From an uncultured virus (IMG/VR IMGVR_UViG_3300020438_000022) (lineage: Duplodnaviria; Heunggongvirae; Uroviricota; Caudoviricetes), in IMG/VR virus record IMGVR_UViG_3300020438_000022: a stretch of 64,000 bases of DNA. One strand, written 5' to 3'. Shown one piece after another: positions 9,879 through 50,900 of the stretch (position 1 is its first letter; each line of letters starts with the position of its first letter). The translations under genes were made by a program, and so were the position numbers. Under the pieces are notes generated by a model. That model was not told where the DNA came from, did not search any database, and worked only from the letters and a program-made list of their open reading frames with translations.

Positions 9879-10559
9879 ATGAGTAAGTCTAAAAAAGAAG
9901 CTACGCCCACAATTAATGACATCAACTGGACAGATCATGTATTGGAATTATTGTCTGATGATGAAAAAATTAAAGGTAATCCGACCACAGATGGTTTAAG
10001 AAGAGTTTTTGAAATAGCTTTAGATTGCACAATTACTGAATCTACATCACATATCTGTCAATCCCCAGAACCTGAAAATGGCAACAGAGCTACTGTGATT
10101 CATTCTCTAAGATATGTTTTAAATAACAAGTCTCTGGACGATAGTATTAAAACAAGGACTGTAGACGGCTCAGCAGACGTTTATTGGGGCAATTGTGATA
10201 AGATTTTTAGAAATCATCCAGTAGCAGTAGCTGAAACAAGAGCAGAAGGTCGAGCGTTAAGAAGAGCGCTCAGATTAAGAAAGGTCGTCGCAGCAGAAGA
10301 ATTAGCTGAAGAAGTGGAAGATCTCGATGGTAATACGGTCAATAAAATTACAAATAATCAAATAAATTTCATTGACGTAATGAGCAAACGACTTAATATA
10401 AATGTATCTAAGCTATTATCTCAAGAGAAACTAGATAGTAATATTTACACTGTGTCTCATACTGACGCAGTTGGAATTATTAGAATTTTATCTAAGTATC
10501 AACAAGATATGTCCGCTATTTCAGAAGATATTACAGGTTATAACAACGAATGGAAATAA
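9879..10559 (+). CDS. putative single-strand annealing recombinase (Rad52/Sak-like)
   Basis: AVAETRAEGRALRRAL resembles the AET.A.GRAL helix of phage Rad52-fold annealases. C-terminal ITNNQINFI helical domain. RBS GAGG. Confidence 0.55.
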   Translation: MSKSKKEATPTINDINWTDHVLELLSDDEKIKGNPTTDGLRRVFEIALDCTITESTSHICQSPEPENGNRATVIHSLRYVLNNKSLDDSIKTRTVDGSADVYWGNCDKIFRNHPVAVAETRAEGRALRRALRLRKVVAAEELAEEVEDLDGNTVNKITNNQINFIDVMSKRLNINVSKLLSQEKLDSNIYTVSHTDAVGIIRILSKYQQDMSAISEDITGYNNEWK

Positions 10560-10562
10560 ATT

Positions 10563-10883
10563 ATGAAATTAAAATTTAAGCCTAATGATAAATTAGAATT
10601 TGAATTAGAAGGTGCTGGACAGAAGGAAATTTTTAAAGAACTTGCAATGGTTCAAGAAATTTTTTCTGAAAAGAAGTGTGGAGTATGTGGATCTGAAAAT
10701 ATCAAATTTGTAGTAAGGATTGTAGACGACAACGAATATTATGAATTAAGATGCATGGATTGTGGAGCCGTTCTTTCATACGGACAACACAAAAAAGGCG
10801 GAACACTATTTCCCAAAAGAAAAGATGGTGACGGAAAATATCTACCAAATAATGGTTGGTATAAGTGGACGGGTAATAAATAA
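10563..10883 (+). CDS. small Zn-ribbon protein
   Basis: CGVCGS...CMDCGA. Last gene of the + strand arm. Confidence 0.75.
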   Translation: MKLKFKPNDKLEFELEGAGQKEIFKELAMVQEIFSEKKCGVCGSENIKFVVRIVDDNEYYELRCMDCGAVLSYGQHKKGGTLFPKRKDGDGKYLPNNGWYKWTGNK

Positions 10884-10884
10884 T

Positions 10885-18153: not shown

Positions 18154-18159
18154 TTGTCT

Positions 18160-26750: not shown

Positions 26751-28073
26751 TTATATAACTTCTCCAATTAAAGATTCTGAATGAGGCAAAGAATATATAT
26801 TAGCTGTATTGAGCTTTATCAACATATAATGATCTGATGAAGCAGAAATACTTGATATATTTGTATCTGGACTAATGTTTTGTAAATCAGCCTTTATATG
26901 AACTCCATCATAAGATACGGGAGTTATGTAGTATACCTTAGTGTCGAAGCCTACATATAATGCTGTTCTAAATGTAGCATTTGGGTATTTTTGACAAGAA
27001 ACCCTAAACCCTTTAACGAACTCTAAAGTATTGCTATCTATTATTGGCATAGGAGTTTCTATTGTTTGTAGTGTTCCTTCATTGTCATAGAAAGTACCCC
27101 ACATAAAAAAACTATAATCTTTTAATATGGCTATATTTAAATCATTACCTGTACTCAAATATCTTACTCTTTGACCAGTTTCTACACGTTCTGTAACCAA
27201 AGGGTCTCCAGTTCTACCTAAAATATGTGGTGTTCCTGAAGTAGGATTGGTAGTATCTTGTACTCCTCCCCAACTATAAAGATCACCTAAGCTATCAATA
27301 GCAAAACAAGAATGGAATGAAGAATTGGTATAGATATGCGTTGCATTACTTACTCCAGAAACTACAGCTGCTTGATGATGCACATCAGTATCTTGTATAC
27401 TATTATTACCTAATTGTCCAACATTATTTCTGCCCCAGGCCCAAACATTACCGTCAGAGCCAATAGCTAAAGAATGAAACTCCCCGGCTTCTACTTCGGC
27501 ACCAATTAAATGTACACCTCCTGTTAGAGCAACTTGAGTGAATGATGCAGACTGTGCTGTGTGACCAGTTGATCCATAATTAAAATCATTAGAAAATCCA
27601 TACACAGCGCCGGTAGTACTTATCACTAGACTATGGTTTTCGTTGGTTGCTATTCTGTTCCATGTTGTAGAATCAGCGATATCTACAGTTAATTTAGTTG
27701 CAGTGTCTACGTAGACACCAGACTGACTTAATGTATCGTCATTAGTTCCCATGTAGTATATATCGCCATTATGTAATACAGCGCTATGCTCTCTACTAGT
27801 TTTAATAATAGTAGTAGCATTAGCGTCAAGAATTTTGTTTGGATACGTAACAGTTGGGGAAGTTGTACCTGCTCCCACCTGACCCTGATCATTAGCACCC
27901 CAAGCATATACTCCATCAATAGAAACATTAGCAGGAGTCACAACAGGTGTAGGAGTAGGAGTAACAGAAGGTACTGTAGGAACAATAAGATTATCTTGGC
28001 ATCGTTTAACAACTAATCGATCTGATGCGCTTTGAGGTCCTAGATTACTAGAAAAACTACTGATTGGTGGCAT
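26751..28073 (-). CDS. RCC1-repeat beta-propeller protein
   Basis: VYAWGANDQGQVG, AGEFHSLAIGSDGNVWAWGRNNVGQLG, GDLYSWGG. Short N-terminal TPTPTP linker. Confidence 0.88.
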   Translation of the reverse strand: MPPISSFSSNLGPQSASDRLVVKRCQDNLIVPTVPSVTPTPTPVVTPANVSIDGVYAWGANDQGQVGAGTTSPTVTYPNKILDANATTIIKTSREHSAVLHNGDIYYMGTNDDTLSQSGVYVDTATKLTVDIADSTTWNRIATNENHSLVISTTGAVYGFSNDFNYGSTGHTAQSASFTQVALTGGVHLIGAEVEAGEFHSLAIGSDGNVWAWGRNNVGQLGNNSIQDTDVHHQAAVVSGVSNATHIYTNSSFHSCFAIDSLGDLYSWGGVQDTTNPTSGTPHILGRTGDPLVTERVETGQRVRYLSTGNDLNIAILKDYSFFMWGTFYDNEGTLQTIETPMPIIDSNTLEFVKGFRVSCQKYPNATFRTALYVGFDTKVYYITPVSYDGVHIKADLQNISPDTNISSISASSDHYMLIKLNTANIYSLPHSESLIGEVI

Positions 28074-32460: not shown

Positions 32461-35400
32461 TTAGTTACCATCTGTAATTTCTTCCTCGTCATTAATCGTC
32501 CAACCATTTTGTAGTAATTTAAATTTATTTAAACGTGAAGCTAATGTTGTAGGTTTATTATTAGGTAGGTCGATTTTGCAGTTTCGAGCTAAACAGTTAG
32601 AGTTATTAGCCCAGTTTTGAAGCAGATTATCGTAATGAACATCGGTAATACTGGTGTCTGTTAAAAAGCGATCTAAATCTCTATCGCTATTGACTCCACT
32701 AAAGTTCCAATGAGTACCTAAATCTTGAGAAAAGCTCGTTGCCCCGAGAAACATGCTTCCAAAATTGTTTACATTACTAACGTCCCAACCTGTAATACTA
32801 GGATCATTAAAGTTTACAGCTCCTGCAAAAGTACCATACATACTTGTTACTGCAGAGGTGTTCCAATTAAGAGGTTTATTAAAGTTTGTAGCGTTCTGGA
32901 AAGCACTATTAAGACTTGTGATATTAGTAATATTCCAGTTACTAATATTAGAAGAATTAAATAAAGTACAATCTTTAAAAACATGCTCTAAACCTTCCGG
33001 CTCCCAATCATAAGTAAAAGACACAGGAACACTAACTAAATTACGCAATCCTTCAAAACACAATTGTTTAATAGTATGAGCTCCAAAAGTTAATACTTTA
33101 GTGATCATCTGGTCTCCATAAGTGAATCTAGCATTTAAACCAAAACCATACCCGCTATCAATACCGTCCCGACCTATCTCTAAAGCGCCTCTTTTGTCGT
33201 CCGGAAAACCTTTTTTACTCATCCCAGGTATTGTCACTTTAGCACTTACGAAACCTCTAAAATTACTTTCTGTATGATTAGATCCTCCCAAAACACTTAC
33301 ATATAACAATCCATCTCTAGTGACGTACTGACTATTTTGTATATAGCCTCGTTCAACAGAGTTTTTCGAAGAACTATATGATTCGAAATTAGTTTTGTAA
33401 TCAATAGTATCTGTATTAAGATCGAACATATCACCAGTATCAAACCTTTTTCTAATATCAGTAACGGGTTGAGAATATGTGACTATATAGCCACTAGTGG
33501 ATGTTGGAAAGATGTCCTCATTAAGTCTAGTATTCCAACCCAAAGTAAAGCCAGCAACAAGAAGGCTATACTGATTACCAAATGTTCTAGAAGGTGATGC
33601 ATATTGATTTTCGAGACTATTATTACTCAAAAGCAAACTATACCTACCCCACCAAGCATATTGACCCATGCTTCTATAAGCATATACTCCTTGGTTCAAC
33701 GCCTCGTTGAGGCTAGTGGTTGGCCCAGCACCAGGACTGGCGGAGAGAAATAACCCATCATCTATCTGACCCGTGGCCATATCAGTAATTTCTTGTATGC
33801 TAGGAACATACATATACTTTAGTTCATCAAAATCTTCATCAGTTTCACTAGCATTCACAATAAAATCAGACTCACTGCCTGCATAATAGTTATTTTTGTT
33901 TGCTTGTGTCATCAGTGTCAAGAATCTTGCTCTTTGATTTTGTCGACTAATGTTTTGATTACTACTAAGCTGATGTACTTTAAAAACTGCAGGTTTAGAA
34001 AATATATCCTCTACTGTAGTGTATAAAGGCATCTCTGTGTCTAATATAAAAATAGCATTATTTTGATCTAAAGGAGTTAAAGTTTGAGTAGGAGTATATG
34101 TATGAGTAGGTGTGAAGCTTTGCGATGGTGTGTGCGTAGGAGTGTACGTAGGAGTAGTTGCTGGCGTAGCACTCATAGTATAAGTAGGTGTAGGTGTTAA
34201 TGTTTCTGCTGGTGTAGCAGTAAAAGTCTGTGATGGAGTAACAGTAAAGCTAGGTGTTGGAGTTAAAGTTGCTGCTGGAGTTGCTGTAGGAGTGTAAGTA
34301 GGCGTTGAATTTGGAGTATGACTTACTGTTTGCGTCATTGTGTGCGTTGGAGTGTATGAAGGTGTTACAGACGCTGTGAAAGAGGGAGTAATTGTATATG
34401 TTGGAGTAAAACTTTGAGAAGGAGTATAAGTTTGTGTTGGAGTGTAAGAGGGAGTATAAGAAGGAGTTACAGTTTGTGTGTAAGTCGGAGTAACAGGTGG
34501 CGTATGTGTAGGAGTATGAGTCGGAGTATAAGATTGAGTAGGTGTATGTGTCTGAGTTATAGTAGGAGTTACAGCAGGAGTTGCGCTAACAGTTTGTGTA
34601 GGAGTATGAGATGGTGTTACTGTAAGTGTTTGAGTAGGAGTAAAGGTTTGAGTTAATGTTTGCGTAGGCGTATTTGTATAAGTAACTGAAGGAGTAACAG
34701 TTGTTGTATATGTAGGAGTAACAGTTGGTGATGCTGTATGAGACGGTGTGTAGGTCTGAGTTAATGTGTGTGTAACACTAGGAGTATTAGTGACTGTATG
34801 AGTTGGAGTTGAAGTGAACGTGGGTGTAACAGTAGGTGTTTGGGTAAATGTAGGCGTAAGTGTTGGAGTTGATGTAAGAGTAGGTGTAATAGACGGAGTT
34901 AAATTAGGTGTTGGTGTTATACTAGCAGTAGGCGTTAAAGTTTGGGTAGGAGTTGGTGTTATAAGTGCTAAAGAATCATTTAAGTTTACCATAGCTACAC
35001 GAGAAATTGATGCAGCTTCTACTTTGCTAGGTAGCTTTAGTGGATTTTCCAAAGGCAATTTAATACTAATATCATCGCCTTCAAAAGTTCTATTAAATTT
35101 AGCTACAATCTTGTCATTATACTTATATGTCCAATTATTACTTTTATCTAGCATAACATATCTTTCAGAAGCCTCTTGAGTAGGCAAGAAGCACTGTAAA
35201 GAATATGTAAATTCAAAGTTTCTATTAGAAGCAGCACTGCCAAAACCAGGTGATTGGGGAAAACTTTTTAATGCTAACTCTATTGTATTTTTATCTCTAA
35301 TTTCTAAAATAGTAGCTCCACCAGCTAAAACTTCAGGCTCAGCAATATCTTTAACTATCATACCCGGTTTTAAATCACGAGTATCAATATCAATTAATAT

Positions 35401-35835
35401 ACCGCCATTAGGACCTCTAGATTCTGTGACTGCAGAACTAGTCAAACCTCTGTAGTTACCTCTTCTGACTATTACTTCGGAAGGAGAACATACAACATTA
35501 TAGTAGTCTGTATATAGTATATTATTCGCAGTATCTTTAATATTTAGTTTAATTAAAGATTGACTTTCTCCTTGGTGGCTTGAAGTAACTTTAGCTACTA
35601 CCTGAGGAGTAAATTCGCTAACTTGATTAACAGTGTAGGTGTTTGGTGAGAGATCTACGTTAGCTTGGCTACTAGGAAACACAAATTCAGGTTCAAACTC
35701 TAGGACGTACGTAGATCTAGCTTCTATGTTAGGTGTACCACTTGGATCTGTTGTTTCAGAAAATACCTTATCAAAATTTAATAAAATTCCACATTCACAA
35801 TTTTGAATAGTATCACTATGTTGTTGAACTGTCAT
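32461..35835 (-). CDS. mucin-like Thr/Pro-repeat protein with C-terminal DUF285/BspA-like repeats
   Basis: About 300 aa of TPT/TPS/TQT/THT/TYT repeats. C-terminal FNKPLNWNTSAVTSMYGTFAGAVNFN..ITGWDVSNVNNFGSMFLGATSFSQDL. Confidence 0.85.
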   Translation of the reverse strand: MTVQQHSDTIQNCECGILLNFDKVFSETTDPSGTPNIEARSTYVLEFEPEFVFPSSQANVDLSPNTYTVNQVSEFTPQVVAKVTSSHQGESQSLIKLNIKDTANNILYTDYYNVVCSPSEVIVRRGNYRGLTSSAVTESRGPNGGILIDIDTRDLKPGMIVKDIAEPEVLAGGATILEIRDKNTIELALKSFPQSPGFGSAASNRNFEFTYSLQCFLPTQEASERYVMLDKSNNWTYKYNDKIVAKFNRTFEGDDISIKLPLENPLKLPSKVEAASISRVAMVNLNDSLALITPTPTQTLTPTASITPTPNLTPSITPTLTSTPTLTPTFTQTPTVTPTFTSTPTHTVTNTPSVTHTLTQTYTPSHTASPTVTPTYTTTVTPSVTYTNTPTQTLTQTFTPTQTLTVTPSHTPTQTVSATPAVTPTITQTHTPTQSYTPTHTPTHTPPVTPTYTQTVTPSYTPSYTPTQTYTPSQSFTPTYTITPSFTASVTPSYTPTHTMTQTVSHTPNSTPTYTPTATPAATLTPTPSFTVTPSQTFTATPAETLTPTPTYTMSATPATTPTYTPTHTPSQSFTPTHTYTPTQTLTPLDQNNAIFILDTEMPLYTTVEDIFSKPAVFKVHQLSSNQNISRQNQRARFLTLMTQANKNNYYAGSESDFIVNASETDEDFDELKYMYVPSIQEITDMATGQIDDGLFLSASPGAGPTTSLNEALNQGVYAYRSMGQYAWWGRYSLLLSNNSLENQYASPSRTFGNQYSLLVAGFTLGWNTRLNEDIFPTSTSGYIVTYSQPVTDIRKRFDTGDMFDLNTDTIDYKTNFESYSSSKNSVERGYIQNSQYVTRDGLLYVSVLGGSNHTESNFRGFVSAKVTIPGMSKKGFPDDKRGALEIGRDGIDSGYGFGLNARFTYGDQMITKVLTFGAHTIKQLCFEGLRNLVSVPVSFTYDWEPEGLEHVFKDCTLFNSSNISNWNITNITSLNSAFQNATNFNKPLNWNTSAVTSMYGTFAGAVNFNDPSITGWDVSNVNNFGSMFLGATSFSQDLGTHWNFSGVNSDRDLDRFLTDTSITDVHYDNLLQNWANNSNCLARNCKIDLPNNKPTTLASRLNKFKLLQNGWTINDEEEITDGN
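34070..34962 (-). repeat. degenerate low-complexity repeat encoding the Thr/Pro stalk
   Basis: Alternating Thr with Pro roughly every 6 residues. The DNA is dominated by GGAGT/AGGTGT/TGTGT on the + strand. Confidence 0.9.
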
Positions 35836-35844
35836 CTGTACTTC

Positions 35845-36369
35845 CTATGGACAAACATTACAAGGTATCGCTATAGTTTTTTCCGTTAAAGTATAATTAT
35901 CTGAAGAAACCGTAAATTTAAATATATTAATACTGTCAGCATCATTAATAGTTAAATTAACTGGAATGATTGCTTCTCTAAGTGTTGCGGTTTGTCCGCT
36001 TGGAATTCCATTTGTTCCAGATACGGTATAGTTTGTAAATGATGCAGAACTAATCGTACCAGAACCGCCATTGCCAGTTAATTCATCAAACGAAAAAGTA
36101 TATGTTTTAGGAGATGGTAAAAGATCTTTTACAGTAATATTCATTACGTCACCAAAACAACAAAAATCAGTAACATTAGGAAAAGTGATTGTAGGAGTAG
36201 GCCCAAAACAGACTGTTTGAGGTACAAATTCAACAAGTGTACCATCCATTAATTTTGTAAATAATTTTCCTGTAATACTATTCATTACTAATTCACCAAC
36301 ATCCACCTGTGCAGGATCAGGATTAGGTGACGAAGCTGAATTTTCTGTTCTTTTTAATAAAAGTTTCAT
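35845..36369 (-). CDS. short fibre-attachment-type protein with a Cys-containing C-terminal module
   Basis: N-terminal LLLKR......P......GELVMN..TGKLFTK is typical of phage fibre N-termini. Start re-called at 36369 (ATGA overlap). Confidence 0.7.
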   Translation of the reverse strand: MKLLLKRTENSASSPNPDPAQVDVGELVMNSITGKLFTKLMDGTLVEFVPQTVCFGPTPTITFPNVTDFCCFGDVMNITVKDLLPSPKTYTFSFDELTGNGGSGTISSASFTNYTVSGTNGIPSGQTATLREAIIPVNLTINDADSINIFKFTVSSDNYTLTEKTIAIPCNVCP

Positions 36370-39300
36370 GAACAAACTCCTGTGAATTGAATCTTACCGA
36401 AATCCCATATGCTAGTAACATCTTCAGTGTCAGATGGAGGTTCATACGGATCTGATCCTATACTCTCTATTTGTGTATAAGGTCCAAACCCATAAGAATT
36501 TTGAGCTTTAACCCTAAATAAATATCTAGGAGCATCTTGTATACCAGATAAAGTGGTTTTCTTTCCATCAGTAACTTCTGTATCATCTTCGATTGTAGGC
36601 GTTGGATATGTAGACCAAGTAGATGCGTTATCTGTACTGTATTCAATTACATAGTCTGTAAACGGAGAGCCAAAAGACGGTATAACCCATTTTATCATAG
36701 CTGACAATGTAGATCTAGTAGCTGTTAGATTTCTAACTTCTGAGGGATAATTGCTATTAGGAACAATTTGACTAGAACTCAGAGAAGGTTCTCCAGTGCC
36801 TACTGTGTTTACAGCAGATATTCTAAATATGTAAGTAGAACCATTTTGTAATCCAGTAAGACTAGCACTAGTGTCTATAGAACTTACTCTTTCGTATTTA
36901 GTCCAACTATCACCACCATCTAAAGAATATTCAATTATATAGTTTAGAACAACCCTACCTCCATCATTACTAGGAGCTAGCCAATTTAATGTAACTGAAG
37001 AGTTGCCGGTACTTCCTGTTACACTAGTTGGTTTACCTGGTACCGTAGCTGCTGTTTCAGGGACTTGTGAAATCACCTGACCTAAAGTATTAACAGTTAA
37101 CGGAGCATTAACTACATACGTACCATTGCCGCTTAAGTCTGGTTTAGGAGTAAAGTAAAGTTCTTGAGTAATTAAACCACTGGCATATGCATATCTGTTA
37201 ACAGTTAAATCGGCATAAGTTTGTAGTGCCTCACTACCACTAGTAACTGGATCTCCAATATTAAAAGGAGTATCGGTATTAATATATATTTTAGAAGTTT
37301 CATCAACATGAAATCCGCTAGGTAAACTTTCGCCCACATCTGTATACCCAGAAAACATTACGCCTGTCGCCATTGTTCCAGTAACAGAATTATGGATATT
37401 AGCATCAATCATAAAACCTGGTACTAAACCTACAGACTTACCTGATGCATCGACGCCATGGATCTCTGGCTCGTATCTATGAAAATCTGTCATCCTAGAA
37501 GGATATATGACAAAATCAATATTTTCTCCTAGTAAGTTAAAACTAGTAGAATAATCAGGACGAATACTAATGTGATTTAGGGTAGTTGGCTTGAACGCAT
37601 ATGGAGCAGCATCATTTTCCACCAAACCACCAGCACAAGTGAATCCACTGGTAGCTGCAGGGTCCATTTGCATGCTCATGTATGCACCCTTAGTTACCGA
37701 ATAAGCTAAACCACTCACAAAAGACAATCCGTTTTGTGGTCCCCAAGGTATAGATGGACAGACAGTAATGGTTGGTTTACCATCTTCTTCAGTAACAAAA
37801 TTAGCTGGATCAGGAGTAGCACCCGAACCGTGAATCACAAACATACCGTCAGAACCTTTAACATAGTAGGTCTCTGCGGTCATAAGATTGACTAAACCAA
37901 TAGTGTCTGTATATTTAAAAGCACCAGAAACTTCTTCGGCGCTGTTGCCAGAAAACTGTATTTTGTCATTGTATATCTCTACATTAAGTTTAGCTTCTCT
38001 TTCCCACAAAACACCTTCTGCATCTAAATAATTAGTAGGCGCCCATTCAGCGTAGCCTTCTCCTTGGTGTGTTAAAATATATCCGCTGTACAGCGGAATA
38101 TCTTCACCTATTTTAATTTTTGGAAGAGACACTTGAGTAGAACTTACAATCTCTCCAGAATCATATGTAATAGCAGAGAAAGTTTCAACATTCTTTTGGT
38201 CGGTTACATACAGCGGACTTTTCGAGTTTCCTCCTGGCATGTTCAAGACACCAGAAAGGAATTTAAATTGATCAGAAGAACCTGCTTCATGATCAGATAA
38301 CTTATAAATAACACTACCACTAGAACCAGGATAAGTAGCCGTTTCTACTCCCTCACTATTAATCTTAATAATATCTTCAGTTCTTACTTCAGATGCTTCA
38401 ATACCACTAACTTTAATAGGATAAGGAGAATATAATCTAATAAAACCATCTTGAGCTACTAAGTTTATATCTCCAGATTGACTAGATAAAGTAACTCCAG
38501 AATTGCTACTTAAGAAATTACCGTAAGTACCATCAAAATTAACATCATCCACGTCGACAGTAACATTATCTTGAGCACCTAAAGTAAATTTATACGAACC
38601 TCTTTCAAACTTAAATAAACCATCTAAGAATTCTATAGACTCAGCTCTACCATCTTTTCCAGTAGGACTAACAAAACTACCATCACCAACGTAAAGCTTA
38701 TCTGTATAAGTCCAACCACTTACGCTTAGGTTAGCAAATTCTTTAAAAGCACCTCCAATACCAGTAGATTCAAATACTGGGAAAGGATCATCTCGTTTGA
38801 TCATTATATTAGATGTACCAGATCTAATTGTGTATTCTTTGTATTCAAAGTAAGCAGCTTTATGCCATTCATGTATGTTGGGTAACCAATATTTATTATA
38901 TGAATTTTTGGTAACTTGATATGTATCTCCGCCCGTATTTATTAATGTGTACGAACCATCTTCAGTAGTATTTGAATTAACCGCACTACCTGTAGGAGCA
39001 CCATTGTGTAACCAGTTAGCAAATCTTAAACTAGATAAGTAATTTACAAACACTACAGGCTTATTGTCCATATCTGGTTTAGTATGATATGTGTAGGTTC
39101 CAGGAGAACCTGATCTTACAATACCTCCTACTTCCTCACCACTCATGGACGTCTGATATAAATTAAGGTTGTCTGTTGACGCTACAGCATTTAAAAATTC
39201 AATATATTGAGTATTAGTAACTTCTGTTTCAGATAGCCTATAGTTGTAATTAACAGTACCTAGATTATTGATGCCTGTAGCAAAAAGATTTAATCCGGTA

Positions 39301-41912
39301 GGAATGTCTGCTGTTCCACTAGTTGTATATAGGTCTGAATTATCTTCAATATTGAATGGATCAATAACAGACTTGAAAGATAAGTCTATATTGGCTCCAC
39401 TTTCTAGTGCAACTTCATCAGAAAGACCATATGAACTAGCAACCCTAAAACCTATGTCTTCAAAAATTCCACTACCTGATGCAGGAAGTAAACTTCTTAG
39501 AGTATTGCCTTCTTTGCTTTTGAAAGAACCACCAGCACTATATTCAATTAAAGGAGTATGAGTTGTATTACTATTTTCAATCCATTCTCTAACATTACCA
39601 TTTTGGTCTCTAGTTCCATAATAGCTACTAGCCCCATTAGTAGTAACGTCGGTGACTAATCCAGAAAAAGAACCAGAAGCAGCATAGTCATAATTAGAAC
39701 TATTATTTAAATTATTAAATCCTGCTCCACCACTGGTCACTGCAATAGTAAAAGGTCTAGAGCTTGTTTGTGTAGCATAAGTGTAATATATTCCAGAATT
39801 AAAAGACTGATTACCAGAACCATCAGCATTTATTTTAAGAGCAGGAACAGCATCGGTACCATATACAATAAAATCAATATTTTTTTGCTGATCATTAAAT
39901 ACTGTACTAATACCAGGCCTGATGCTTAAAGTATTATCTGTAGCATCTGCTAAAGTACCAGGAGCAGTGAACATCTTCATAGACAAGAAGCCACCACGAG
40001 TAATTGAGTAAACCTCTAAGTCTGTAACCGTATTATCACTTAAGTTTTGATCTACAACTAATCCTGTAATCTGATTATCGTCAATATCAATAGAATTAAT
40101 TCTACGATATTCTATAGTTCCATCAGCTAATTTAACAGCAACCTGATCTCCAACTTCAAATTCTGTAGTCTCTGGTAAAATAGCTTCTAAAGTAGGATCT
40201 TCTAAAAATACAATTTGTCTTAAACATATATTGGCTTTTCTAATAGGATATTGATTCCACAAAATATTCTGATTAGTTAAGAAATAATCAGTAATACTAT
40301 ATACTCCTGTTACAAATCCACCGTCTGTAGTAGTTAGGACTCTCCCAGAAGGAATAGATGCAAATTTAACATTTTCAGAACTAGCAGATAAAAATCCAGA
40401 ACTATCAACAGCTAATATACTATTCTCTGATACGTTATTAAGTTTAATTGTATTTGATTGCAGGTTTGTGGCGAACAAACTTGGAATGGTTATAGATCCT
40501 GTACCTCCACTACCTAATATAATAGATGTACTATTTAATTTAACACTAGGACTATTGATAGATATTTCGCTGTCAGATAAATTTATATTGCTCGTATCAT
40601 GACCTAAAACAGTATTACTACCACTAGCAATAGTTAAATTATTATCAGAATAACCTATAAATGTACTAGAATCATTACTTGTTAAGGTTTTCACTCCTGT
40701 ATTTGTAGTAGCAACTACAAGATCAAACTGCCCCTTAGGTGTAGTGGCAGCAGTATTATTTGCGGTAGATTTAAAAGACACATAATTTACTTTGTTTCCA
40801 TTAGTGTCTTTACCAGCTAAGTTTAATTCACCAACAACAGTACCATTAGATAACAAACCACTAGGCTTGTGATATAAAGTCATGTTGGCTGGATGACAGT
40901 AATTTCTGTTTTCTAATCTAAAACCTTCTTGACAGATATTATTAACAACATGGAAAACAGTAACAGGTCTACTACCAGAAGGAATATTTAAACCTAATCT
41001 ACCATCATATGCAAAAAACATATTATAATTAGATATACCTGTACCACTACCATATACTAAAAAGTCACTAGCTTCTCTGTCATTATTAAATACAGTATCG
41101 GCGGTACCGGATGTAGACAATATTGTATGGGCCGATGCTTCTGAGTCAGAACCCAATAGCATCTTATTAGTTCCACCAGGACTCCAATAAACTTCTGAAC
41201 CTTGAAATTCGCCCCCGCCACCATTAAATTGAAATGAATATGTATTACCAGAAGGATCACTTAAGATAGAGTATTCAGGATTAGATAAGGTAGAGAAGTC
41301 TGATGGTGGAACAACCACACCGATGATATGCCACTGATTATTAGCAAAACCAAGCTTTATGTAATTTTTTGCAGGAGACAACGTATGAGATGTGTGACCT
41401 TCTGATGATCTAATAATTACTGAATTATTACCAGATATAATTTTAAATTCTATTGCTAAATTTTTAGATTGTACATTAGTAGGTAGTAAAACGTCTATAG
41501 ATTTTTCTGATGTATCTATTAGGTAAGAGGCTTGTACTGGATCTGCTGTAAAGTGATCATCTCTTACAATAATATTATTAAACCCAGTATTAAACGAACT
41601 TTCATTAGCAAATATGAAAAACTCTTGACGTTTAGCATCTGGGAAGTTTATTGGTTCGTCATTACTAGAAGAGCGTACAACTCTGTCTCTCTTAACAATA
41701 ATGTCGTCGCCTTGTAAGTCTACATAACCCACACCTACTTCATATATAATGTTTGATTCGCCATAACTACGCACTATGTAAGGAATATAGTATCCGACAT
41801 GACTAGAATTTAAAGAATTGTAACCATTTAAAGGTTTTTGGACAACAAATACCCCGTCTTTAAATTTAAAATTAAAACCGATACTATCAAATACTTTTGT
41901 TACATTATTCAT
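36366..41912 (-). CDS. tail fibre/receptor-binding protein with FGE-sulfatase (C-type lectin fold) domain and two C-terminal fibronectin type III domains
   Basis: FGE motifs GTRDQNGNVREW, GGSF, DIGFRVA, ETEVTNTQYIEFLN, KPVVFVNY, LPNIHEWHKAAY. Fn3: VPGKPTSVTG..GNSSVTLNWLAPSNDGG...LTGLQNGSTYIFRISAVN.VGTG. Confidence 0.88.
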   Translation of the reverse strand: MNNVTKVFDSIGFNFKFKDGVFVVQKPLNGYNSLNSSHVGYYIPYIVRSYGESNIIYEVGVGYVDLQGDDIIVKRDRVVRSSSNDEPINFPDAKRQEFFIFANESSFNTGFNNIIVRDDHFTADPVQASYLIDTSEKSIDVLLPTNVQSKNLAIEFKIISGNNSVIIRSSEGHTSHTLSPAKNYIKLGFANNQWHIIGVVVPPSDFSTLSNPEYSILSDPSGNTYSFQFNGGGGEFQGSEVYWSPGGTNKMLLGSDSEASAHTILSTSGTADTVFNNDREASDFLVYGSGTGISNYNMFFAYDGRLGLNIPSGSRPVTVFHVVNNICQEGFRLENRNYCHPANMTLYHKPSGLLSNGTVVGELNLAGKDTNGNKVNYVSFKSTANNTAATTPKGQFDLVVATTNTGVKTLTSNDSSTFIGYSDNNLTIASGSNTVLGHDTSNINLSDSEISINSPSVKLNSTSIILGSGGTGSITIPSLFATNLQSNTIKLNNVSENSILAVDSSGFLSASSENVKFASIPSGRVLTTTDGGFVTGVYSITDYFLTNQNILWNQYPIRKANICLRQIVFLEDPTLEAILPETTEFEVGDQVAVKLADGTIEYRRINSIDIDDNQITGLVVDQNLSDNTVTDLEVYSITRGGFLSMKMFTAPGTLADATDNTLSIRPGISTVFNDQQKNIDFIVYGTDAVPALKINADGSGNQSFNSGIYYTYATQTSSRPFTIAVTSGGAGFNNLNNSSNYDYAASGSFSGLVTDVTTNGASSYYGTRDQNGNVREWIENSNTTHTPLIEYSAGGSFKSKEGNTLRSLLPASGSGIFEDIGFRVASSYGLSDEVALESGANIDLSFKSVIDPFNIEDNSDLYTTSGTADIPTGLNLFATGINNLGTVNYNYRLSETEVTNTQYIEFLNAVASTDNLNLYQTSMSGEEVGGIVRSGSPGTYTYHTKPDMDNKPVVFVNYLSSLRFANWLHNGAPTGSAVNSNTTEDGSYTLINTGGDTYQVTKNSYNKYWLPNIHEWHKAAYFEYKEYTIRSGTSNIMIKRDDPFPVFESTGIGGAFKEFANLSVSGWTYTDKLYVGDGSFVSPTGKDGRAESIEFLDGLFKFERGSYKFTLGAQDNVTVDVDDVNFDGTYGNFLSSNSGVTLSSQSGDINLVAQDGFIRLYSPYPIKVSGIEASEVRTEDIIKINSEGVETATYPGSSGSVIYKLSDHEAGSSDQFKFLSGVLNMPGGNSKSPLYVTDQKNVETFSAITYDSGEIVSSTQVSLPKIKIGEDIPLYSGYILTHQGEGYAEWAPTNYLDAEGVLWEREAKLNVEIYNDKIQFSGNSAEEVSGAFKYTDTIGLVNLMTAETYYVKGSDGMFVIHGSGATPDPANFVTEEDGKPTITVCPSIPWGPQNGLSFVSGLAYSVTKGAYMSMQMDPAATSGFTCAGGLVENDAAPYAFKPTTLNHISIRPDYSTSFNLLGENIDFVIYPSRMTDFHRYEPEIHGVDASGKSVGLVPGFMIDANIHNSVTGTMATGVMFSGYTDVGESLPSGFHVDETSKIYINTDTPFNIGDPVTSGSEALQTYADLTVNRYAYASGLITQELYFTPKPDLSGNGTYVVNAPLTVNTLGQVISQVPETAATVPGKPTSVTGSTGNSSVTLNWLAPSNDGGRVVLNYIIEYSLDGGDSWTKYERVSSIDTSASLTGLQNGSTYIFRISAVNTVGTGEPSLSSSQIVPNSNYPSEVRNLTATRSTLSAMIKWVIPSFGSPFTDYVIEYSTDNASTWSTYPTPTIEDDTEVTDGKKTTLSGIQDAPRYLFRVKAQNSYGFGPYTQIESIGSDPYEPPSDTEDVTSIWDFGKIQFTGVCS

Positions 41913-41914
41913 AA

Positions 41915-44900
41915 TTAAGAGTATTGACCCCCTCCCATAGGTGTCGAGTTTCTGCTCGTGTTAAGTCCACCCTCGAATTCAGTACGATCTAACCTAGACA
42001 TAGCGTTATGGTTAGTTAAAGAAGAGTTCTGGTCTGCCTGAGCAAGTATATTTTGACTTACGTTATCTGTAACGGCATCTAATCCGAAATGCTGAGTCTT
42101 AACTGTTTGATCCACCTTAGTGGTAAGTTGATTTGGCATATTGTCTACAGACTCAGAATACTGAGAAACTCCTTGATTGTACATTTCTGTTGATCCTGCA
42201 AATGTTTCTGTTCCTTGTGCGAATGTATTTACATGCTCCCCTAACTGTCCAACAAATTCTTGTAAATTGGTCAACTGGCTGGCTAAATTATCTAGTGCTG
42301 TAGTATCTATGCTTATATTAGGCTGGGCAATATTATTAGATACACCACCAACAGCGCCACCAATGTTATAATATCCAGGTTTTATGAAGCCACCTTGAGA
42401 TAAATATCTAGTCATATTAGAACTTTGAAGCTTACCATTATTTATATCATTTAATAATCCACCAAATTTTCTAGCTTGAGGAGCCCTAACCACAAATTCA
42501 TCAGGACTTAATGCTGCATTCATATTACTATTAGCAATATTGGCCAAAATACTGTCTGTACCCTTTGGTTTGGCCATGTTATTACCTATTCCAACATATC
42601 CACCATTAGCAAATTTAGGAATCTCTCCCTTAATTTTAGAAAATTTAGGAATGTCTCCCTTATATGGAGTTTGCAAAGCCCGTGACAAGCTTTTACCTTT
42701 AGGCAATTGTTCTAAGAGCATAAATAATTCTTGTTCGTCGCCACTATTTTGAATTTCTAGTAGTCTCTTCGTAAATTTTCTTCCTTTCATTCCTTCTGCA
42801 TATTCTATAACTCTATTCATAAAGCTACCAGAAGCACCTGGCTTATGACCAAATAAATCCAGACCATGAATTTTTGCTATTCGAGCTTCTTCTAGTATCA
42901 GTGGGGGCAACTGTCTAGCAAAGCTTTGATCAGCTGGTAGCGCTGTCGAGGCTTTTCGAGCTGAAGTAAGACTCTCTAATCCTGTATCCCCCATATATTT
43001 AACCATATCCGCATTTATTCCCATGCCTTCTACTAAATTATAATTTTTAACAAAAGCGTCAACTGCAGCGGCATCTTTTACGTCTAACTTTGATTCGTGA
43101 ATTAAATCAGTAATAGCATGAAGTCTTTCATGATGTAAGGTTCGTTTACCTTGACCGGTTAATTTACCCGCCCTCATCCCACCTTGGCGAGGATCTGCAT
43201 TAATCCGTACTGCCATCTTACCATCAGCATCAGGGGAGTAGCGACCTCGAGTATTGTTTAAACGTCGGTATTTTTTATTAAGCGCTGCATCGACCGACCC
43301 TTCTTTAAAAGTGTGATGGTTTCTTATATATTCTGGAAAATCTTTTTGAGGATAATAAGTTTTATAATCTAACATAGCATTATAAATTTCTTCAGCTCTA
43401 GGATTCCTCTGCGCAGCAGCAGCTGTCATCTGTCCCATGTTTGATAGTTTTTCTGCAGCTTCTCTGTTTGCTTGCTTCGTACTTTTCCTGAACGGTTTCT
43501 TTGCTGCCTCTTTTACATTACCCACAAATGTTGTTACTAGGCCAGGCTGTTGAAGACTTCCGGATGTAGTAGTTGCTGGAGCTACAGGAGCTGGGCGTGG
43601 TGTTGCAGGAAGCTGCGGACTTGTCAAAGTAGGATTAGAATAAAAGTTTGGAGGACCAGGAGGATGTGATTTTTGATAAGGTATTCTTCCTTGTTGAGTG
43701 GCGTTGTTAAAGAAATTTTGTCGCATCGACTCAACCATAGTCTCTTGATACGGATTATCGTATAAGCGTTGTAGTTGTTGAGCTGCTATTTGAGGATCAG
43801 TATCGAGATTAGATGCAACTATTCTAGCAGTTTCACTATCAAATCCGAAGTGTCTTCCCGTTAGGAAATCCATTGTTGCAAATGGCTTCTTTGCATCATG
43901 TGCTAAAAATCTATCACGTATTGTTTTTAGTCCTGAAGTACCTGCTCCTTCTTGAAACAAATTACCTAGTACTGCTAATGCTCCAGCTTCATCATCTCCA
44001 GATTCTATTAATTCTCTAATTTTTTCATCGGGAACACCTGATTTTCTAGCAAAATTAATAGCTGCTTCTCGTTCTCTTAATAAAGCTGCTCTTCTGGTCG
44101 TGGATCTTGCAGTGTTAGCAGCATCTATAGCGTTACTAGTGTCTCGTATGCGTGCTACTGCGTCTGATGCCGTGTTAATAACACCTCTAGTACCCCTTCG
44201 TAAAAAGCTAGGAGCCTTCATCGCACCTCTTACTCCCAACTCTATAGCATCAGGAGACATGAAATATGGAATTACACCAGCTGCTCCAGAACCTAGAGTC
44301 TCTAAGCCTCCACCTTCAAGGTTATTCTTTTTTAAGTAATCTTGATGTTCACTGTATGTTTTATTTATTTGTGCTTCTAATGCACCTATCTCTTTGTCTA
44401 CAGAACTAGAATATTCTGATGAATTAATACCTCCTGTTAGCATGCTAAATGATCTATATCCTTTTAAATCAGCTAATCTTGATTTTAGATCTCCCATCTT
44501 TGTAGCATATTGATCTTGAACTATATAGCCTTCTGCACCAGCATCACTAAGAAAATTACTGCCACCAATAGCTCTTAAGGGAGCTCTTCCTGATTTATAC
44601 AGCAACGATTGAAGACCTGTTCCTACAGTTTCAAATAACTCCTCAGTACCTCCGACAGTATTAGCTATGTAATTTCCTACGCCTGGAATAGACCTTGTTC
44701 CAGCTTCTAATTTCTCAAAAATATCCGGCATACGTTCTTTGTCTCTGTATCTTGATTCAATAGTAAAATCCTGCATAGTCATACCGTCTGTAAATGGTAT
44801 AACTTGATCACGAGCACTAGGCTGTTCTGAAGATAAAGGAGCAGTTGCTGTTGGTGGTGCTGGTGCTGTTGTTCGGAACATACCAGGCACTACAGCATTA

Positions 44901-47900
44901 TTTATTTCAGCTTGTTTGGCCGCTGCTTTTTCTTCTTTTGCTTTTTGTTGAGCTGCTGCAGTTTGTTTCATATTTTCATAAATTTGTGCTCCAGCATCCA
45001 TCGGCTTCTGTATAAAATTATCATACATCATACCAGGTACAGATGGCAGCATTTCCATCATCTGTCCTACGCCTTCTCTAATCTGAGCTTCTTGTCGTTT
45101 TCTTTCTTCGTCTCTATGATATTGTTCTAGTGCTAATCTTTCTTGTTGTTTTTCATACTGTTCATAAACACGCCTATAGCTATCTTTGTCTAATCTATCA
45201 AAAGGAACAGTAGCAGAACCAGTAATTTCTAAAGTTTTTGGATCTCTTGTATCAAAATGTATCAATCCTGTTTCAGGATCATATTTATGAAAACTTCCAT
45301 GTCTACTGTGTCCACTGTCAGTATAAAAAGTTTGTACGCCAGATATTTGATCAGGTTGTATGAATCCTTGCTTGATAGCATTTTGCTCTCTGGCTTTACG
45401 TTCAGCTTGCGCCTGATTATAATCAGCACTAGCTTGTGCTAAACGAGCATCATTTGCTGCATCTGCCGCTTGTTCAGTCTTAATACGTTCTGCTTCTTTT
45501 TGTTTTGCTGCTTGTGTTTGTGCAAAGTTCGCTCCTGCTAAATAATCTTTATTAGCTTGTTTTTCTCTAGCTTTTCTAGCTTCAGCAGTAAACATCTCAT
45601 CATATGCTGTAGTGCGAGGACCTTCTTTATGCAGTCTCATGTACTCGTTTCTACTTTCAGCCAAACTTCTTTTATGATTCTCTTTTTGTTCTGCAGTAGT
45701 AGCCATACTCAGTTGGTCTCTACTAAACGCCATACCTTCTTTATGCATCTGCATTTCTTCATGATGCATGCGTCTTTCTTCTGAAGACTGAAGCATTAAG
45801 TTTCTGTACTCGTTGTTTGAATTGTATACCTGATCAGGATCGATACGCTTACTCATATCGTATCCACCATATTTACTATAGCTATCTTTATAAATTTGAT
45901 TAGCTGCTTCTCTATCTCCTGTCTCAGCAAAATGCCTCTCAGATTCTGATTCAGCCATTGCTTTTGCTCTACCATTTGTTGAAGCAATAAGCATTCTACC
46001 TTGTTGATCATTATCGAAATCCATCATTGCAAGACCACCTCGTACAAATCCTTTAGCTTTAATCAAGCCTCCTTTATTTCCATACATAGCTTGAGATAAC
46101 GAACCGGTTTTATTTAAAATATCTAAGTTTCTAATACCAATTTGAGATACAGCATCCTGTTTTAAGACATACTCGCCATCTGCCAACATAGCAGGAATTC
46201 TATCTGGACCTTTAGGTTCATATTTTACATATGTGCCTTGTTGAGCATATACAGGCTTGATAACACCACCGCTTGCCGCTGCCACTATTGGTTGACCGCT
46301 ACCTGGGGCTGGACGACTTTGAACCGGCTGTCGACCCTGTCCTTGTCCTTGTGATGCTAAATACCCCTCTAAATTAGCTATAGAAGTAGAAAGACTTTCT
46401 AATACAGCAGGAAGGTTTGCCATATTTTCGTTCAATTGGGCCATAGCTTCGTTAGCTTGTCGTTGCATTTCAGATGCGTCTCTAGCTTCTTGTTCAGCTA
46501 GTCTTGCAGCAGAATCTGTACTAGGATCTTCTAAGCGTTTAATAGCCCTAAAGAACTCTGGGGCATTTTCTGGGGTTAATCCCATTTGAGCACCCATTTG
46601 TCTCATTAAGCCAGCTTGTTCTTTGTTGAAGTCTTCACGTATTTGTTCGTCTGTTAATTCAGCATTTTTAACTGCCTTTTGTTCGTCTGCTCTTTCCTGT
46701 GCTGTTAATGGACGATCTTTTATACCTAACTTTTCTCTTCTATCCATTATGAAATCAGCACGTTCATTTCTTTTATTTAATTCTCTAGAAGCACGCTGAC
46801 GATCTAGTGCATCAAACATTTCTCCTCTTTGTTGAGCTCTAACATTTTCAAATGCTAATCTAGCTTGTCTTGGGTCACCACCACTTCTTTGGAAAGCGTC
46901 TCTAGCAGCTGCTCTGGCTTCAGGAGTGTTGCTTTCTAATCTGCCTGTTTGTTGAAATTGTGCTAGTCTCTGATCAGCTCTAAAGTTTCTTAAGTTTTCT
47001 TCAGGACTTCTTGTTAATATACCTTTAGCTTGATTAATAGTTTGATCTTGTAATGCTCTAATCTCAGACAAGTCTCTTAATGCAGCTGCTGCTAATTCTC
47101 CACTAGCTGCGAGTCTTTCTAAAGCTGCTTTATTACGTGCTAATTCTCTATTGTTTTCATCTAGTTCTAAAGTATGTTTAGCATAAGCATCGGTATCGGT
47201 AGTTGCTGCCCTATCTCTTTTAAGCTCTAAGTCTTCTGATTTTTTATTAAGTCTTTCTATATTTTCTAAAATAGCAAAAGGATCTGTTCGACCTCCTGTG
47301 TCTCTACCTGTTCTACGAGCAGAGATTAGTGCTGTTTCACCAAAGCTGGCATCAACGCCGGTCATTACCTTTCTTAATTCTAACTCAAAGTCAGTACCAA
47401 TATCATCAGCTTTTTGTCTAAATCTTCTAGCTTCTTCTAATCTTTTCCCACTAGCTTGTACTTCTTTACTAAACGCATTTAATTCTTTTTCTAATGCATT
47501 CAAGATTTGTAGTAATGGTGATGAGGCTTTTTCTTGTTGTTCTCTTAAAGATTTATTAAAAGCATCTTCAAAAGCTAGTCTTTCGGATGCTTTGTCGGAG
47601 CCAGGTTGTGCTCTGCTTGCTTCGGCTGCACTTTGCCCCGCTTGAATTGCGGTTGTCATTATGTCATCAAATACTTGTTTTTGTTCCGGGTTTCTGATTC
47701 TAGCAGAGGCAGTGGCTTGTCTGGTCCTCAGCCTATCAGCAAGTAAATCACCACCTATATCCCCCTGTCCAACCATAGCGCTTTGAACAGTAAGATTTGG
47801 ATTTCTTTCTATAAATGAACCAGCTATAGCTGTGTTACGGGCTGATCTTCCAGCTCGACCAGGAATAAAACTACTAGCAAAACTAGCAGAATCTATAATA

Positions 47901-50900
47901 TCTCTGCGACTATATACTCCAGGATTTTCTAAAACATTATTAGCTCTAAAACGAGTATCTCGCATAGAAGCGTTACCATCAAGTCTATCTGCTCTAACGG
48001 ATCTAGCATTTCTAGCCCGATCAGTTTCGAACATAAATCTATTAACAGCATCACTCACAGTTTGTGTTAATTTATTAAGAGAGAAAGATAGCCTCATTGT
48101 GGCTTTAGCTGCTTCTTCCATCTTGATCGTCATATCAGATTGATTCTGAGCAGCTTCAACAGCAGCTATTCCTCCTTCTGCCATAGCTTTTGTTAGCGCA
48201 GCTTCACCTGCTGCACGAGCTTCTGTTTCACTTTTGCCCTCTTCCAAAGCTTTATTATAAGCGATAGCCATTTGAAGCTGTACTGACTGATCTGTTCTTG
48301 CTATCGTTTTTTCTACGGTAGAGTCAACAGCTTCTCCTCTTCTCATTTGTTTTAGCATAACTTGTTGTGCAGCAACTGCGCTTTCTCTGGCAGCAGCAGC
48401 TTGTGTTGCGGCAAACTCTTTAAGTTCAGGAGCTCCTAAAGTATTGCTTCGTGATGTACCAATTCCAAGGGTAACAAATCTACCTACACGTTCTGCAAAT
48501 GTGCCACTTTCGAGTTCTTGGTTTCTTGTTTTACTAAGTAATTCTTCAAAACTTGTTGAGGCAGAGGCAGCTAATGCGGGATTTTGAGCCGCTAAAGCAT
48601 CAATTAATCTAGACTCTAAACCAATATCATCGATATCTGCTTCAAAATTAGACAGTGCTCGCTTAACACCTTTGGTGGCTTTCTCTAGATCTTCACCAGC
48701 TTTAGCTTTTCTTAATTCTCTAGCAGCTTCTTCTTGAGCATCACTAAAATCACCAACAAAATCAGCAGCAGCATAAATCGCAGTACCGAATGCGATTACT
48801 CCAGCCGCAGCTGGACCTATACCAGGAATCATAGCAACTTGACCAGCAATAGCCAAACCTGTTCCTGCTTGAGTAGTTGCTCTCTCAAAACCTGTAACAT
48901 TTCGAGCGTTTGCTTCCGAACCTTCTCTATCCCCAAAAATACTTTCTCCAGCTCCTCCTAACATAGATATGGCACTACCAGCAAAAAATCCTGCCTGACC
49001 AGAAATACCTCTACCTACATTAGCTAATTTTTTACCAAAACCACCAACTAAAGGTATAGAGCTAATTCTATCACCAGCACGTTTAATGCTATTTACAATA
49101 GTGTTTGATAGTATTGCTGATCGTTGCTCAACTAATCTATTTGTAGCTGCACTCTTAGTATCTCTAAGTCTAGCTAGTGCATCTTCTTTCTGTTGCACTT
49201 CAATAAGAGAAGCACCTTGTCTTTTTAGTGCCTGAATATCACCCATAATAGCAGACTCTACTTGTTCAAAAGAAAGAGCTGCTCCATTAGCCTTTTGTCT
49301 TAATAAATCAAATTGAGTATTATTCTTTCCTAATCTATTAGAGACATCATTTAATAAATCTCCACTCACAGAAAGTGTGCTAGTGTATTTTTGTAAGCGT
49401 CCTGTTGTTAGTATAGTTGCTTTACCTATACCTGTAATACTTTTTTCTAATTTTTGTAAATCAATACTAGGACCGGTAGCTGATCCTTGCTTTAGAGATT
49501 GAGTAGCAAATTTGTCTATTTCAGGATCTACTCCTCCACCCGTATTAAATTTTTGAACGCCAACAAAACCACCCTTATTATATCCTTTAACTCTATCAGC
49601 ACGATTAAGATTATTCAGTTTCGCTGCTCCTAAACTCTTAGCAGCTTTTTTATTAACTACAAATTCACCAGGAGTTAGTAATGCAGGTACTGTGTCTTCT
49701 GAACTGCCACCTGTAGCAAATCTTCTGATAGTACCTCCAAAATAATTTTTGCTACGTCTGAGATTTTTTTGTTCATTTTTTTCTATTTCTGCTTGTGTGC
49801 GAGATGTTTTACCAGATTGCTTTAATCTTCCAGCGTCTTCAAGAACAGTTAAATCACCTATACTCAGAGTATCAGGTTTATTAGATAAAGCTTTTTTAGA
49901 AGCTACACTTGAAGCAGTACGATCGATATCACTTCTTGGTCTAAAAATAGAGCCAGCTACTTTATCTAGTAAATGAGATGTAGAAACTTGTTCTTGTGTG
50001 CTTTTTATCTCTGCAAAGTCAATATTGCTAATCATACCATCTAGTCTAGATGTAGAAGCGCCTCCTCCACCAACACCTCTTTCGGCGAGCTTAGCAACTT
50101 TCTTAGAATCAAGCAAAACTTGTTCAAAAGCTAATCCTCTAGCTTTATGAGCTTGTGAATTGAAAGCTTTATTATAGTCTTGTAAATTTTTATTACTTTT
50201 TGGTAAACCTAATGAGTTAGGGTCAATTTGCACACGTTCGATATTAGCATGTACTTTGTCTTTTCTATTAAGAACCAAAGGAGGACTTGATGCTACAGCT
50301 TCTGAGATAAGAGTATTTCTCTTTTTATCAAAAGTTGTTCTTACATTTTTAACATAAGGCTTTGATGATGGAATATCAACAACTCCACCTTGAGCATATC
50401 TATTCATTCGAGATAAATTTTGCATACCAACAGCTTGTACGGCTTTTTTCCTAATTACAAATTCGCCGGGCTCAAGCATTGCGGGTACAGTATCTCCACT
50501 ACCGGAACCTCCAACCACACCACCTCTAGCATATTTTTGTATAGCACCTCCTGCTGCGTTTCTTCGTAATCCGCCACCAAAACCCTTGGCGAAATTACCT
50601 AATGCTCCAATACCTTTAAACGCTAACACAGATCCAAGTATAGGAATCAATCCTTTAACACTATCAGCAATGCTAATCATAGCACTAGAAACACTAAGGG
50701 CTCCTTTTACTAAAACTTGAAAACTATCTGTGGCACCAATCTCTCTAACAAGACTTAAAAATTCTTCACGCACTTTAGATATTTGATTAGCTAAACTAAG
50801 TTGAGCAAGAGCGGCGTCTTTAGCTAGTGACCCTTGTCCTCGCTGGGCGACAGATAAAGCGTTTTGAGCAGTGGTAAACTGTTGTAGTAAAGGAATTACC

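Follow-up and report, generated by a model that had tools for sequence, protein, structure and literature searches.

Swapped halves of an FGE-sulfatase/C-type-lectin-fold domain nested in a tail protein of an uncultured phage

The DNA analysed here, referred to as the window, is the whole 64,000-nucleotide stretch of an uncultured virus of the Caudoviricetes (IMG/VR record IMGVR_UViG_3300020438_000022), a phage-like region of about 35% GC. Its minus strand encodes an 1848-residue tail protein, P0001, and the middle of this protein is occupied by a domain of the FGE-sulfatase/C-type-lectin (CLec) fold whose two halves stand in reversed order. The evidence laid out below supports a true circular permutation of the fold. 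The reversed order is conserved in homologues, and the domain interrupts a module of which the same protein has an uninterrupted copy nearer its C-terminus. We consider it likely that residues ~703-1024 form one compact, non-enzymatic permuted domain on a hairpin stalk, displayed laterally as an adsorption head. The gene and the parts of the domain are as follows (coordinates are those of the window).

36366..41912, minus strand: tail-protein gene P0001, 1848 aa / 5547 nt, from the list of open reading frames (ORFs) and the translation
38841..39806, minus strand: circularly permuted FGE-sulfatase/CLec-fold domain, residues ~703-1024, from the reversed order, the model, the fold matches and the packing
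39435..39806, minus strand: first part, the canonical C-terminal half (C-half), residues 703-826, YYTYATQ ... YGTRDQNGNVREW ... GGSF ... GFRVAS; Pfam profile positions 150-203
39381..39434, minus strand: linker of residues 827-844 between the matched halves, which bridges GFRVAS (the former C-terminus) and LSFKSVIDP (the former N-terminus)
38841..39380, minus strand: second part, the canonical N-terminal half (N-half), residues 845-1024, FKSVIDPFN ... YRLSETEVTNTQY ... KPVVFV ... NWLHNG ... YWLPNIHEWHKAAYF; Pfam profile positions 35-124

Order of the halves and the break between them

Searched with the whole of P0001, the Pfam FGE-sulfatase profile PF03781 gave 39.4 bits (E 7.4e-10, cut-off 23.3) in two stretches. 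When the match was taken piecewise, residues 738-792 corresponded to profile positions 150-203 (18.8 bits) and residues 889-1022 to positions 35-124 (30.9 bits), the two pieces reaching 43.7 bits together (E 3.5e-11). P0001 is therefore not collinear with the profile, in which the motifs EVTN..Y, PV..V and LP.E.EW..AA come before GNV.EW, GGS and GFR. The initial annotation of this DNA, made from the sequence alone, had read the halves (residues about 706-1023) as swapped, had placed the break between KAAY and Y..Y.T and had expected two Pfam matches in reversed model order. The two matches were obtained, all the sequence strings that it quoted are present in P0001, and both the swap and the break, which lies between KAAYF and YYTYATQ, are borne out by the comparisons that follow.

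For pairwise comparisons the permuted domain of P0001 was used as a 343-aa query segment. In P0249 (343 aa) and P0241 (366 aa), both small and canonical, residues 183-326 of this segment are matched first and residues 9-107 directly after. A phmmer search of the segment against PDB sequences returned nothing at E<=0.01, whereas a profile built from 31 family members did find solved structures. The strongest of these sequence matches is CarF (PDB 5AOH, E 4.2e-10), in which profile positions 316-390 fall on chain residues 81-153 and positions 138-201 on residues 199-262; the order in CarF is thus canonical. pFGE and PorK show the same order, opposite to that of P0001. At the level of the parts, residues 703-826 align to the C-terminal parts of CarF, pFGE, PorK and TvpA and to OvsA 330-449, and residues 845-1024 align to TvpA 53-213 (Z 5.3) and CarF 2-163 (Z 5.2).

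P0249 and P0241 belong to the canonical secreted bacterial FGE-sulfatase domains, which occur singly or in tandem in Planctomycetota/Verrucomicrobiota loci (L074-L150); their 'IPEP' tails may be PEP-CTERM anchors. The canonical bacterial domains are 40-55% identical to P0001 in the N-half and have the motifs EVTN.QY, NWLHNG, EW.KAAY, DQNGNV.EW and GFR in common with it. They differ in that the N-half is followed by the C-half and in that the hairpin KAxFY...YxYAT is continuous.

The position of the break follows from this hairpin. Canonical proteins run both of its strands consecutively, as in P0249 (KAGFYDGGSDAYFNYATMS) and P0243 (KAAYYDPGKADNWWIYATRY), and the permutation therefore opens a beta-hairpin turn (KAxFY-turn-YxYATx). 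With the cut in the turn, the new termini are the two paired strands of the hairpin and lie side by side. Contacts of Y709/Y710 with Y1021/F1022 are among the most confident that were predicted, and ~18 residues bridge the former ends, GFRVAS ... LSFKSVIDP. A regular expression for YxYAT upstream of the C-half proved too strict (16 of 96 units), and alignment A1, with 31 rows over residues 630-1080, was used for the P0001 type. In the A1 columns at the YxYAT strand, G78 is invariant and Y80 is kept in at least 90%. In the arrangement that we propose, the chain would enter through the C-terminal half, pass over the old ends by the linker and close with the N-terminal half, and the paired hairpin strands would serve as a stalk of two strands by which the domain is set into a loop in the host module.

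Predicted fold of the domain

Alignment A1 served as input to an AlphaFold2 model of residues 630-1080. The model has a mean predicted local distance difference test (pLDDT) of 73.3 and a predicted template modelling score (pTM) of 0.69; the inserted part lies at pLDDT 70-96 and the flanks at 50-62. A structural search of the model against representatives returned 16 chains at Z>=2, 14 of them of the FGE/CLec type. The N-terminal parts of TvpA 2y3c (Z 5.3, root-mean-square deviation (rmsd) 3.7, 140 residues aligned) and CarF (Z 5.2) fall on model residues 199-398, and the C-terminal parts of OvsA (330-449; Z 3.7, rmsd 2.8, 98 aligned), EgtB-IV and TaqVP fall on model residues 74-201. The FGE/CLec fold is thus found half by half, at modest Z values. 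Every FGE/CLec-type match covers one half alone, which is just what a sequential aligner should give for a permuted domain.

The fold matches also include EgtB, OvoA, SenA and PvdO, and 'formylglycine-generating enzyme' is the label given by the Pfam family and in a number of source annotations. An active enzyme of the FGE/EgtB/PvdO kind on the tail, modifying for example a molecule of the host surface, has to be weighed. FGE catalysis needs a Cys pair. Neither Cys nor His occupies any of the 35 invariant columns of A1, and Cys is absent from all columns that are invariant or conserved at >=90% in the 31 family members; no Cys or His is even nearly invariant among them. The lack of a conserved Cys or His argues against FGE-like catalysis, and the closest solved matches, TvpA and CarF, are non-enzymatic. 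We regard an active enzyme as very unlikely.

The half-by-half matches could also mean that the segment is not one fold and consists of two separate incomplete domains left over from a tandem FGE array. Proteins with tandem arrays are collinear with the query across their domain junctions (P0003, query residues 13-334 at 35% identity; P0018; P0116), and C-half before N-half is exactly the order that a shifted window on such an array yields. In a packing test, the halves (residues 74-205 and 212-398 of A1) were given to a complex predictor as separate chains. They were predicted to pack through about 300 contacts with interaction prediction scores from aligned errors (ipSAE) of 0.95, 0.94 and 0.95, against 0.01 for the best of three controls; the runs agreed in at least 93% of the contacts, with a partner pLDDT of at least 91. 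A score at this level was attained by 116 of 157 solved complexes and by 2 of 215 mismatched pairs, counts that hold only roughly here, where our own alignment was used. Moreover, a pTM of 0.69 over 451 residues should not be attainable by independent pieces of 125 and 180 residues, and the arrangement occurs without flanking partner halves in 87 proteins and in 40 viral ORFs of the P0001 type. The packing prediction supports a compact domain and does not show one. A single permuted fold, as opposed to two remnants, is nevertheless what the models predict, in line with the initial annotation, and the chance that the halves are mere leftovers appears slim indeed.

Insertion in a tail protein and a probable role in binding

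The sequences on both sides of the domain belong to a module that P0001 carries more than once.

39813..40010, minus strand: left flank of the interrupted module, residues ~635-700 (YSITRGG...SIRPGISTVFN...NIDFIVYG...VPALKINAD), from the flank matches
38688..38840, minus strand: right flank, residues ~1025-1075 (...SNIMIKRDDPF...ANLSVSGWTY), from its match to 1539-1580
37173..37703, minus strand: later uninterrupted copy of the module, residues ~1404-1580, from the flank matches; kept in homologues (alignment A2)

In pairwise comparison the left flank (635-685) matches residues 1404-1470 with an E value of 2e-11 and the right flank (1033-1073) matches residues 1539-1580 with 4e-5, as the initial annotation had noticed. 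About 36-68 residues separate the flank motifs in the later copy and about 350 at the permuted domain. The matches to an uninterrupted copy therefore mark the domain as an insert of ~320 residues in a repeated module. The left-flank motif also matches residues 254-289 (E 1e-5), and a DNA repeat, D10, pairs 39857-39906 with 41048-41097; the module into which the domain is plugged would thus recur three times in P0001. A model of the later copy (residues 1390-1610, 24-row alignment) stayed at pLDDT 47.3 and pTM 0.25 and did not resolve its fold. A look-up of residues 1395-1600 in the ESM Atlas gave scores of at most 0.86 and no common family; its weak leads (Mtd_N, BppL_N and PTL_trimer) were not used as evidence. 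With so poor a model and no family match, the description of the host module as a fibre shaft in the initial annotation is unproven.

The role of P0001 is suggested by two features outside the inserted domain.

41915..52102, minus strand: upstream ORF of 3395 aa with a tape-measure-like N-terminus, PHROG match at residues 20-528 and Pfam PhageMin_Tail at 190-382
36771..37031, minus strand: residues 1628-1714, the best of 2 stretches that match fibronectin type III (Pfam fn3, E 1.8e-21), the second stretch coming after it

The P0001 gene begins 3 nt past the stop of the 3395-aa ORF. It lies directly downstream of a tape-measure-like gene, the position of genes for the distal tail protein (Dit) or other tail-tip proteins. 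The first ~530 residues of the upstream product match tape-measure families and the other ~2850 are nearly without family match; if all 3395 residues serve to set the length of the tail, an exceptionally long tail would result. The Pfam content of P0001 consists of FGE-sulfatase and fn3. No PHROG family matches P0001, its N-terminal ~600 residues match no Pfam or PHROG family, Dit included, and tblastn of P0001 against 50,697 deposited phage records found no match.

The position after the tape-measure gene and the two C-terminal fn3 domains lead us to read the domain as a binding head. Judged from gene position and relatives, it is most likely a non-enzymatic head for the host surface on a tail-tip or fibre protein. 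Such a laterally displayed head would bind the host surface, probably a glycan, in adsorption. A comparable design is known from the 'evolved' Dit proteins of siphophages, which have carbohydrate-binding modules inserted in a loop. P0001 resembles them in the place of its gene after the tape measure and in the nesting of a putative binding module within a structural tail protein; it differs in having no Dit sequence or family match and in that the inserted fold is another one and is permuted.

The best structural match, TvpA (Treponema denticola variable protein 1, PDB 2Y3C; family profile E 0.0046), likewise puts an FGE-type fold to non-enzymatic binding use. The FGE-type CLec fold is a classic scaffold of massive sequence variation in receptor-binding proteins of phages and bacteria. 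TvpA differs from the P0001 domain in that its order is canonical and its variable region is C-terminal and diversified by a diversity-generating retroelement (DGR), whereas the domain of P0001 is swapped and internal, with no DGR found. The initial annotation had connected the permutation with DGRs, as moving the variable region inside the protein. The part of this claim that concerns position stands: the equivalent of the DGR variable region (~790-826) aligns to the C-terminal 198-292 of TvpA, and about 1000 more residues follow it, whereas DGR proteins have it at the C-terminal end. The link to a DGR, with neither reverse transcriptase nor template repeat, is left without a functional basis. 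Among the 32 window ORFs of >=120 aa none matches RVT_1, a reverse transcriptase was found in 0 of 4 related genomes that CheckV rates complete (197-244 kb), and the window contains no repeat family of >=40 nt that pairs with 38793-39821, save one 43-nt match at 65%, which is at chance level. FGE-type CLec folds are described as common DGR targets (PMC3521204), and another ORF of the window carries an Mtd_N domain; all the same, a DGR-diversified target seems highly improbable here. The ORF in question (60085-63924, minus strand) encodes a tail-fibre-like protein of 1279 aa with Mtd_N (PF18454) at residues 7-42 and has three internal repeats of ~300 nt spaced 378 nt apart (62205-63260); a lectin-fold domain was not detected in it.

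Across the 87 homologues that match residues 630-1080 end to end, the most variable blocks of the folded domain are 780-789 (H 2.85), 800-819 (H 2.3-2.4), 860-879 and 990-999. Block 800-819 sits between GGS and GFR and is aligned to the C-terminal part of TvpA. That the most variable blocks take in the equivalent of the ligand-binding variable region of DGR lectin-fold proteins is a further ground for proposing a binding role. The linker 827-844 is a variable, gappy block as well (H 2.43, gaps 0.19).

Several observations weigh against a single, laterally displayed binding head. A Foldseek search of the PDB returned nothing at E<=0.001, with hints below that threshold to CarF over 59 columns and to TvpA over 133 columns at rmsd 10, and the matches of the sequential aligner are modest, none of them above Z 5.3. 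The high packing score may echo the predictor's memory of solved FGE-fold domains. The insertion in a loop of a fibre module is read from sequence repeats, the host module being predicted at pLDDT 50-62 next to the domain and 47.3 in the later copy. Finally, the block equivalent to the DGR variable region is no more variable than several other loops. We still regard a compact permuted head as the probable nature of residues ~703-1024.

Occurrence in phages and bacteria

A word-indexed protein search with residues 690-1040 found 115 proteins, and in an exhaustive HMMER search 5510 representatives reached E<=0.001, the best 150 of them being listed. Among 251 proteins collected, the 87 homologues have the same order throughout, and 96 show a single C-half-then-N-half pattern. 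The initial annotation had proposed to look for the same permutation point in homologues, and the arrangement is conserved in these 87. PF03781 is carried by 104 of 105 homologues of residues 1-680. The sole exception is P0303 (1151 aa), which aligns to residues 2-424 and 1220-1848 and is without the whole middle block of ~800 residues, the lectin-fold head included.

A search of IMG/VR gave 260 stretches encoding relatives, of which 72 loci were kept. With C and N denoting the two halves in the order in which they occur, the 92 viral ORFs with half-domain matches at these loci divide into CN (69), CNCN (10), N (8) and five other patterns found once each; the canonical NC pattern occurs in none of the 92. 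The bacterial and archaeal sample (one genome per species; 85 ORFs in 78 loci) gave N in 52 ORFs, NC in 27, NCNC in 2, CN in 2, and NNCN and C in one each. The two CN cases are L088, on a 141-kb contig of a metagenome-assembled genome (MAG) of an unclassified 'bacterium', and L073, on a 3.8-kb contig of an Alphaproteobacteria MAG; both contigs may be of phage origin and have been assigned to a bacterial bin.

An error of assembly or gene calling that joined or reordered pieces might be suspected in a window taken from an uncultured assembly. The same order and position recur, however, in independent sources (ena, jgi, lgn and ncbi) and in 40 viral contigs, and the frame is open through 1848 codons, which makes the chance of an artefact practically negligible.

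Related viral contigs reach 197-244 kb, and 4 related genomes in this range are rated 100% complete by CheckV. In one related phage of 197 kb (L040, 8075-11646) the orthologous gene lies in two frames, with the C-half at the end of an 840-aa ORF and the N-half in another of 406 aa; the split points to a frameshift or a sequencing error near the linker of the old termini.

Not all viral modules are cut at the same place. None of the 40 viral ORFs of the P0001 type has a second hairpin strand after KAAY, and most other viral modules keep that strand. In this second register the break lies ~25 residues further on, and the YxYATQ strand follows KAAYY at the module end. The ORF of L047 gives an example, with ...NEWYKAAYYNPIDSRYYRYATQ, its module starting only at ...DYAFIVTTVGTNG. 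Second-register modules (in ORFs of L047, L059 and L042, for example) share the CN order and the phage lineages with P0001 and differ in break and nesting: they often begin at about ORF residue ~10, or there are 2-4 of them per protein, and they are not nested in a host module. Some viral contigs bear both registers. In L042, a related 152-kb phage, two adjacent giant ORFs (6476-21950; 2443 aa and >2696 aa) contain three to four separate second-register modules each.

The initial annotation had proposed that permutation allowed the domain to be grafted into a loop, and the second register speaks against this. Permuted modules that are not nested show that permutation is not tied to insertion. 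To judge by these sequences, permutation as such would be neither needed for the graft nor caused by it, and the cut within the hairpin would be the one feature specific to the nested form. In an unrooted FastTree tree of 152 N-halves over 141 columns, a branch of 97% local support sets 26 of 28 insertion-type rows, along with the L040 unit, apart; the remaining 2 are hp-minus units of other proteins that a crude rule had taken in. The other phage modules are placed between this group and a mostly bacterial cluster. The tree is consistent with the inserted form having arisen once, and, being short and unrooted, does not settle its ancestry. The nested form could have arisen by re-registering of the permuted module that is usual in these phages, and ultimately from tandem FGE arrays.

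We give about even chances to a wider reading, in which the permuted FGE/CLec fold is a standard phage-specific plug-in adhesin module of a large group of uncultured phages of 120-240 kb with at least two re-registering events behind it: in one register the module would be free-standing or N-terminal, and in the other, cut in the hairpin so that its ends pair, it would sit within a tail-protein loop. The modules would then be candidate receptor-binding modules for this group. Profile searches see fragments of them, two weak out-of-order Pfam matches in the present case and nothing with Foldseek, and such heads are therefore probably under-annotated in viral metagenomes. The fold would tolerate new termini in the hairpin, which would allow nesting in other domains and be of use in the engineering of display scaffolds. 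If the wider reading holds, the lectin fold would have a natural permutation not described before, and phages would have a route, independent of DGRs, to deploy and vary this fold in host recognition.

Full-text searches of the literature turned up no paper on a permuted FGE/CLec domain, and in the passages of PMC7824862, PMC3521204 and PMC8195603 that contain it, 'permut' concerns other matters. Tandem FGE-sulfatase paralogues have already been published (PMC3521204). A survey of jumbo phages (PMC7824862) states that no FGS domains were found in jumbo phages; in contrast, 3 of the 4 related complete genomes exceed 200 kb.

The rest of the window is divided between the strands. Genes for a DNA polymerase III-alpha-like protein, a single-stranded DNA-binding protein (SSB) and a glycosyltransferase lie on the plus strand, and the minus strand carries a long block of very large structural genes. 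Near the left edge (133-2134, plus strand) an ORF of 127 aa with an RNase_T-type exonuclease match is followed by one of 541 aa, which holds only the finger and helix-hairpin-helix (HhH) parts of DNA polymerase III alpha and looks split or cut at the window edge. In the structural block, the adjacent giant ORFs 10885-18153 and 18160-24774 (minus strand; 2422 and 2204 aa) have zero Pfam or PHROG matches, and an RCC1-repeat (beta-propeller) protein of 440 aa is encoded within the tail genes at 26751-28073 (minus strand). The 1124-aa product of the ORF at 32461..35835 (minus strand) has a DUF285 domain (residues 949-1050) and a stretch rich in Thr and Pro, which is encoded at 34050-34950 by degenerate repeats with a 6/12/18-nt period; the GC skew there reaches +0.32, the neighbouring windows of the skew profile having the opposite sign.

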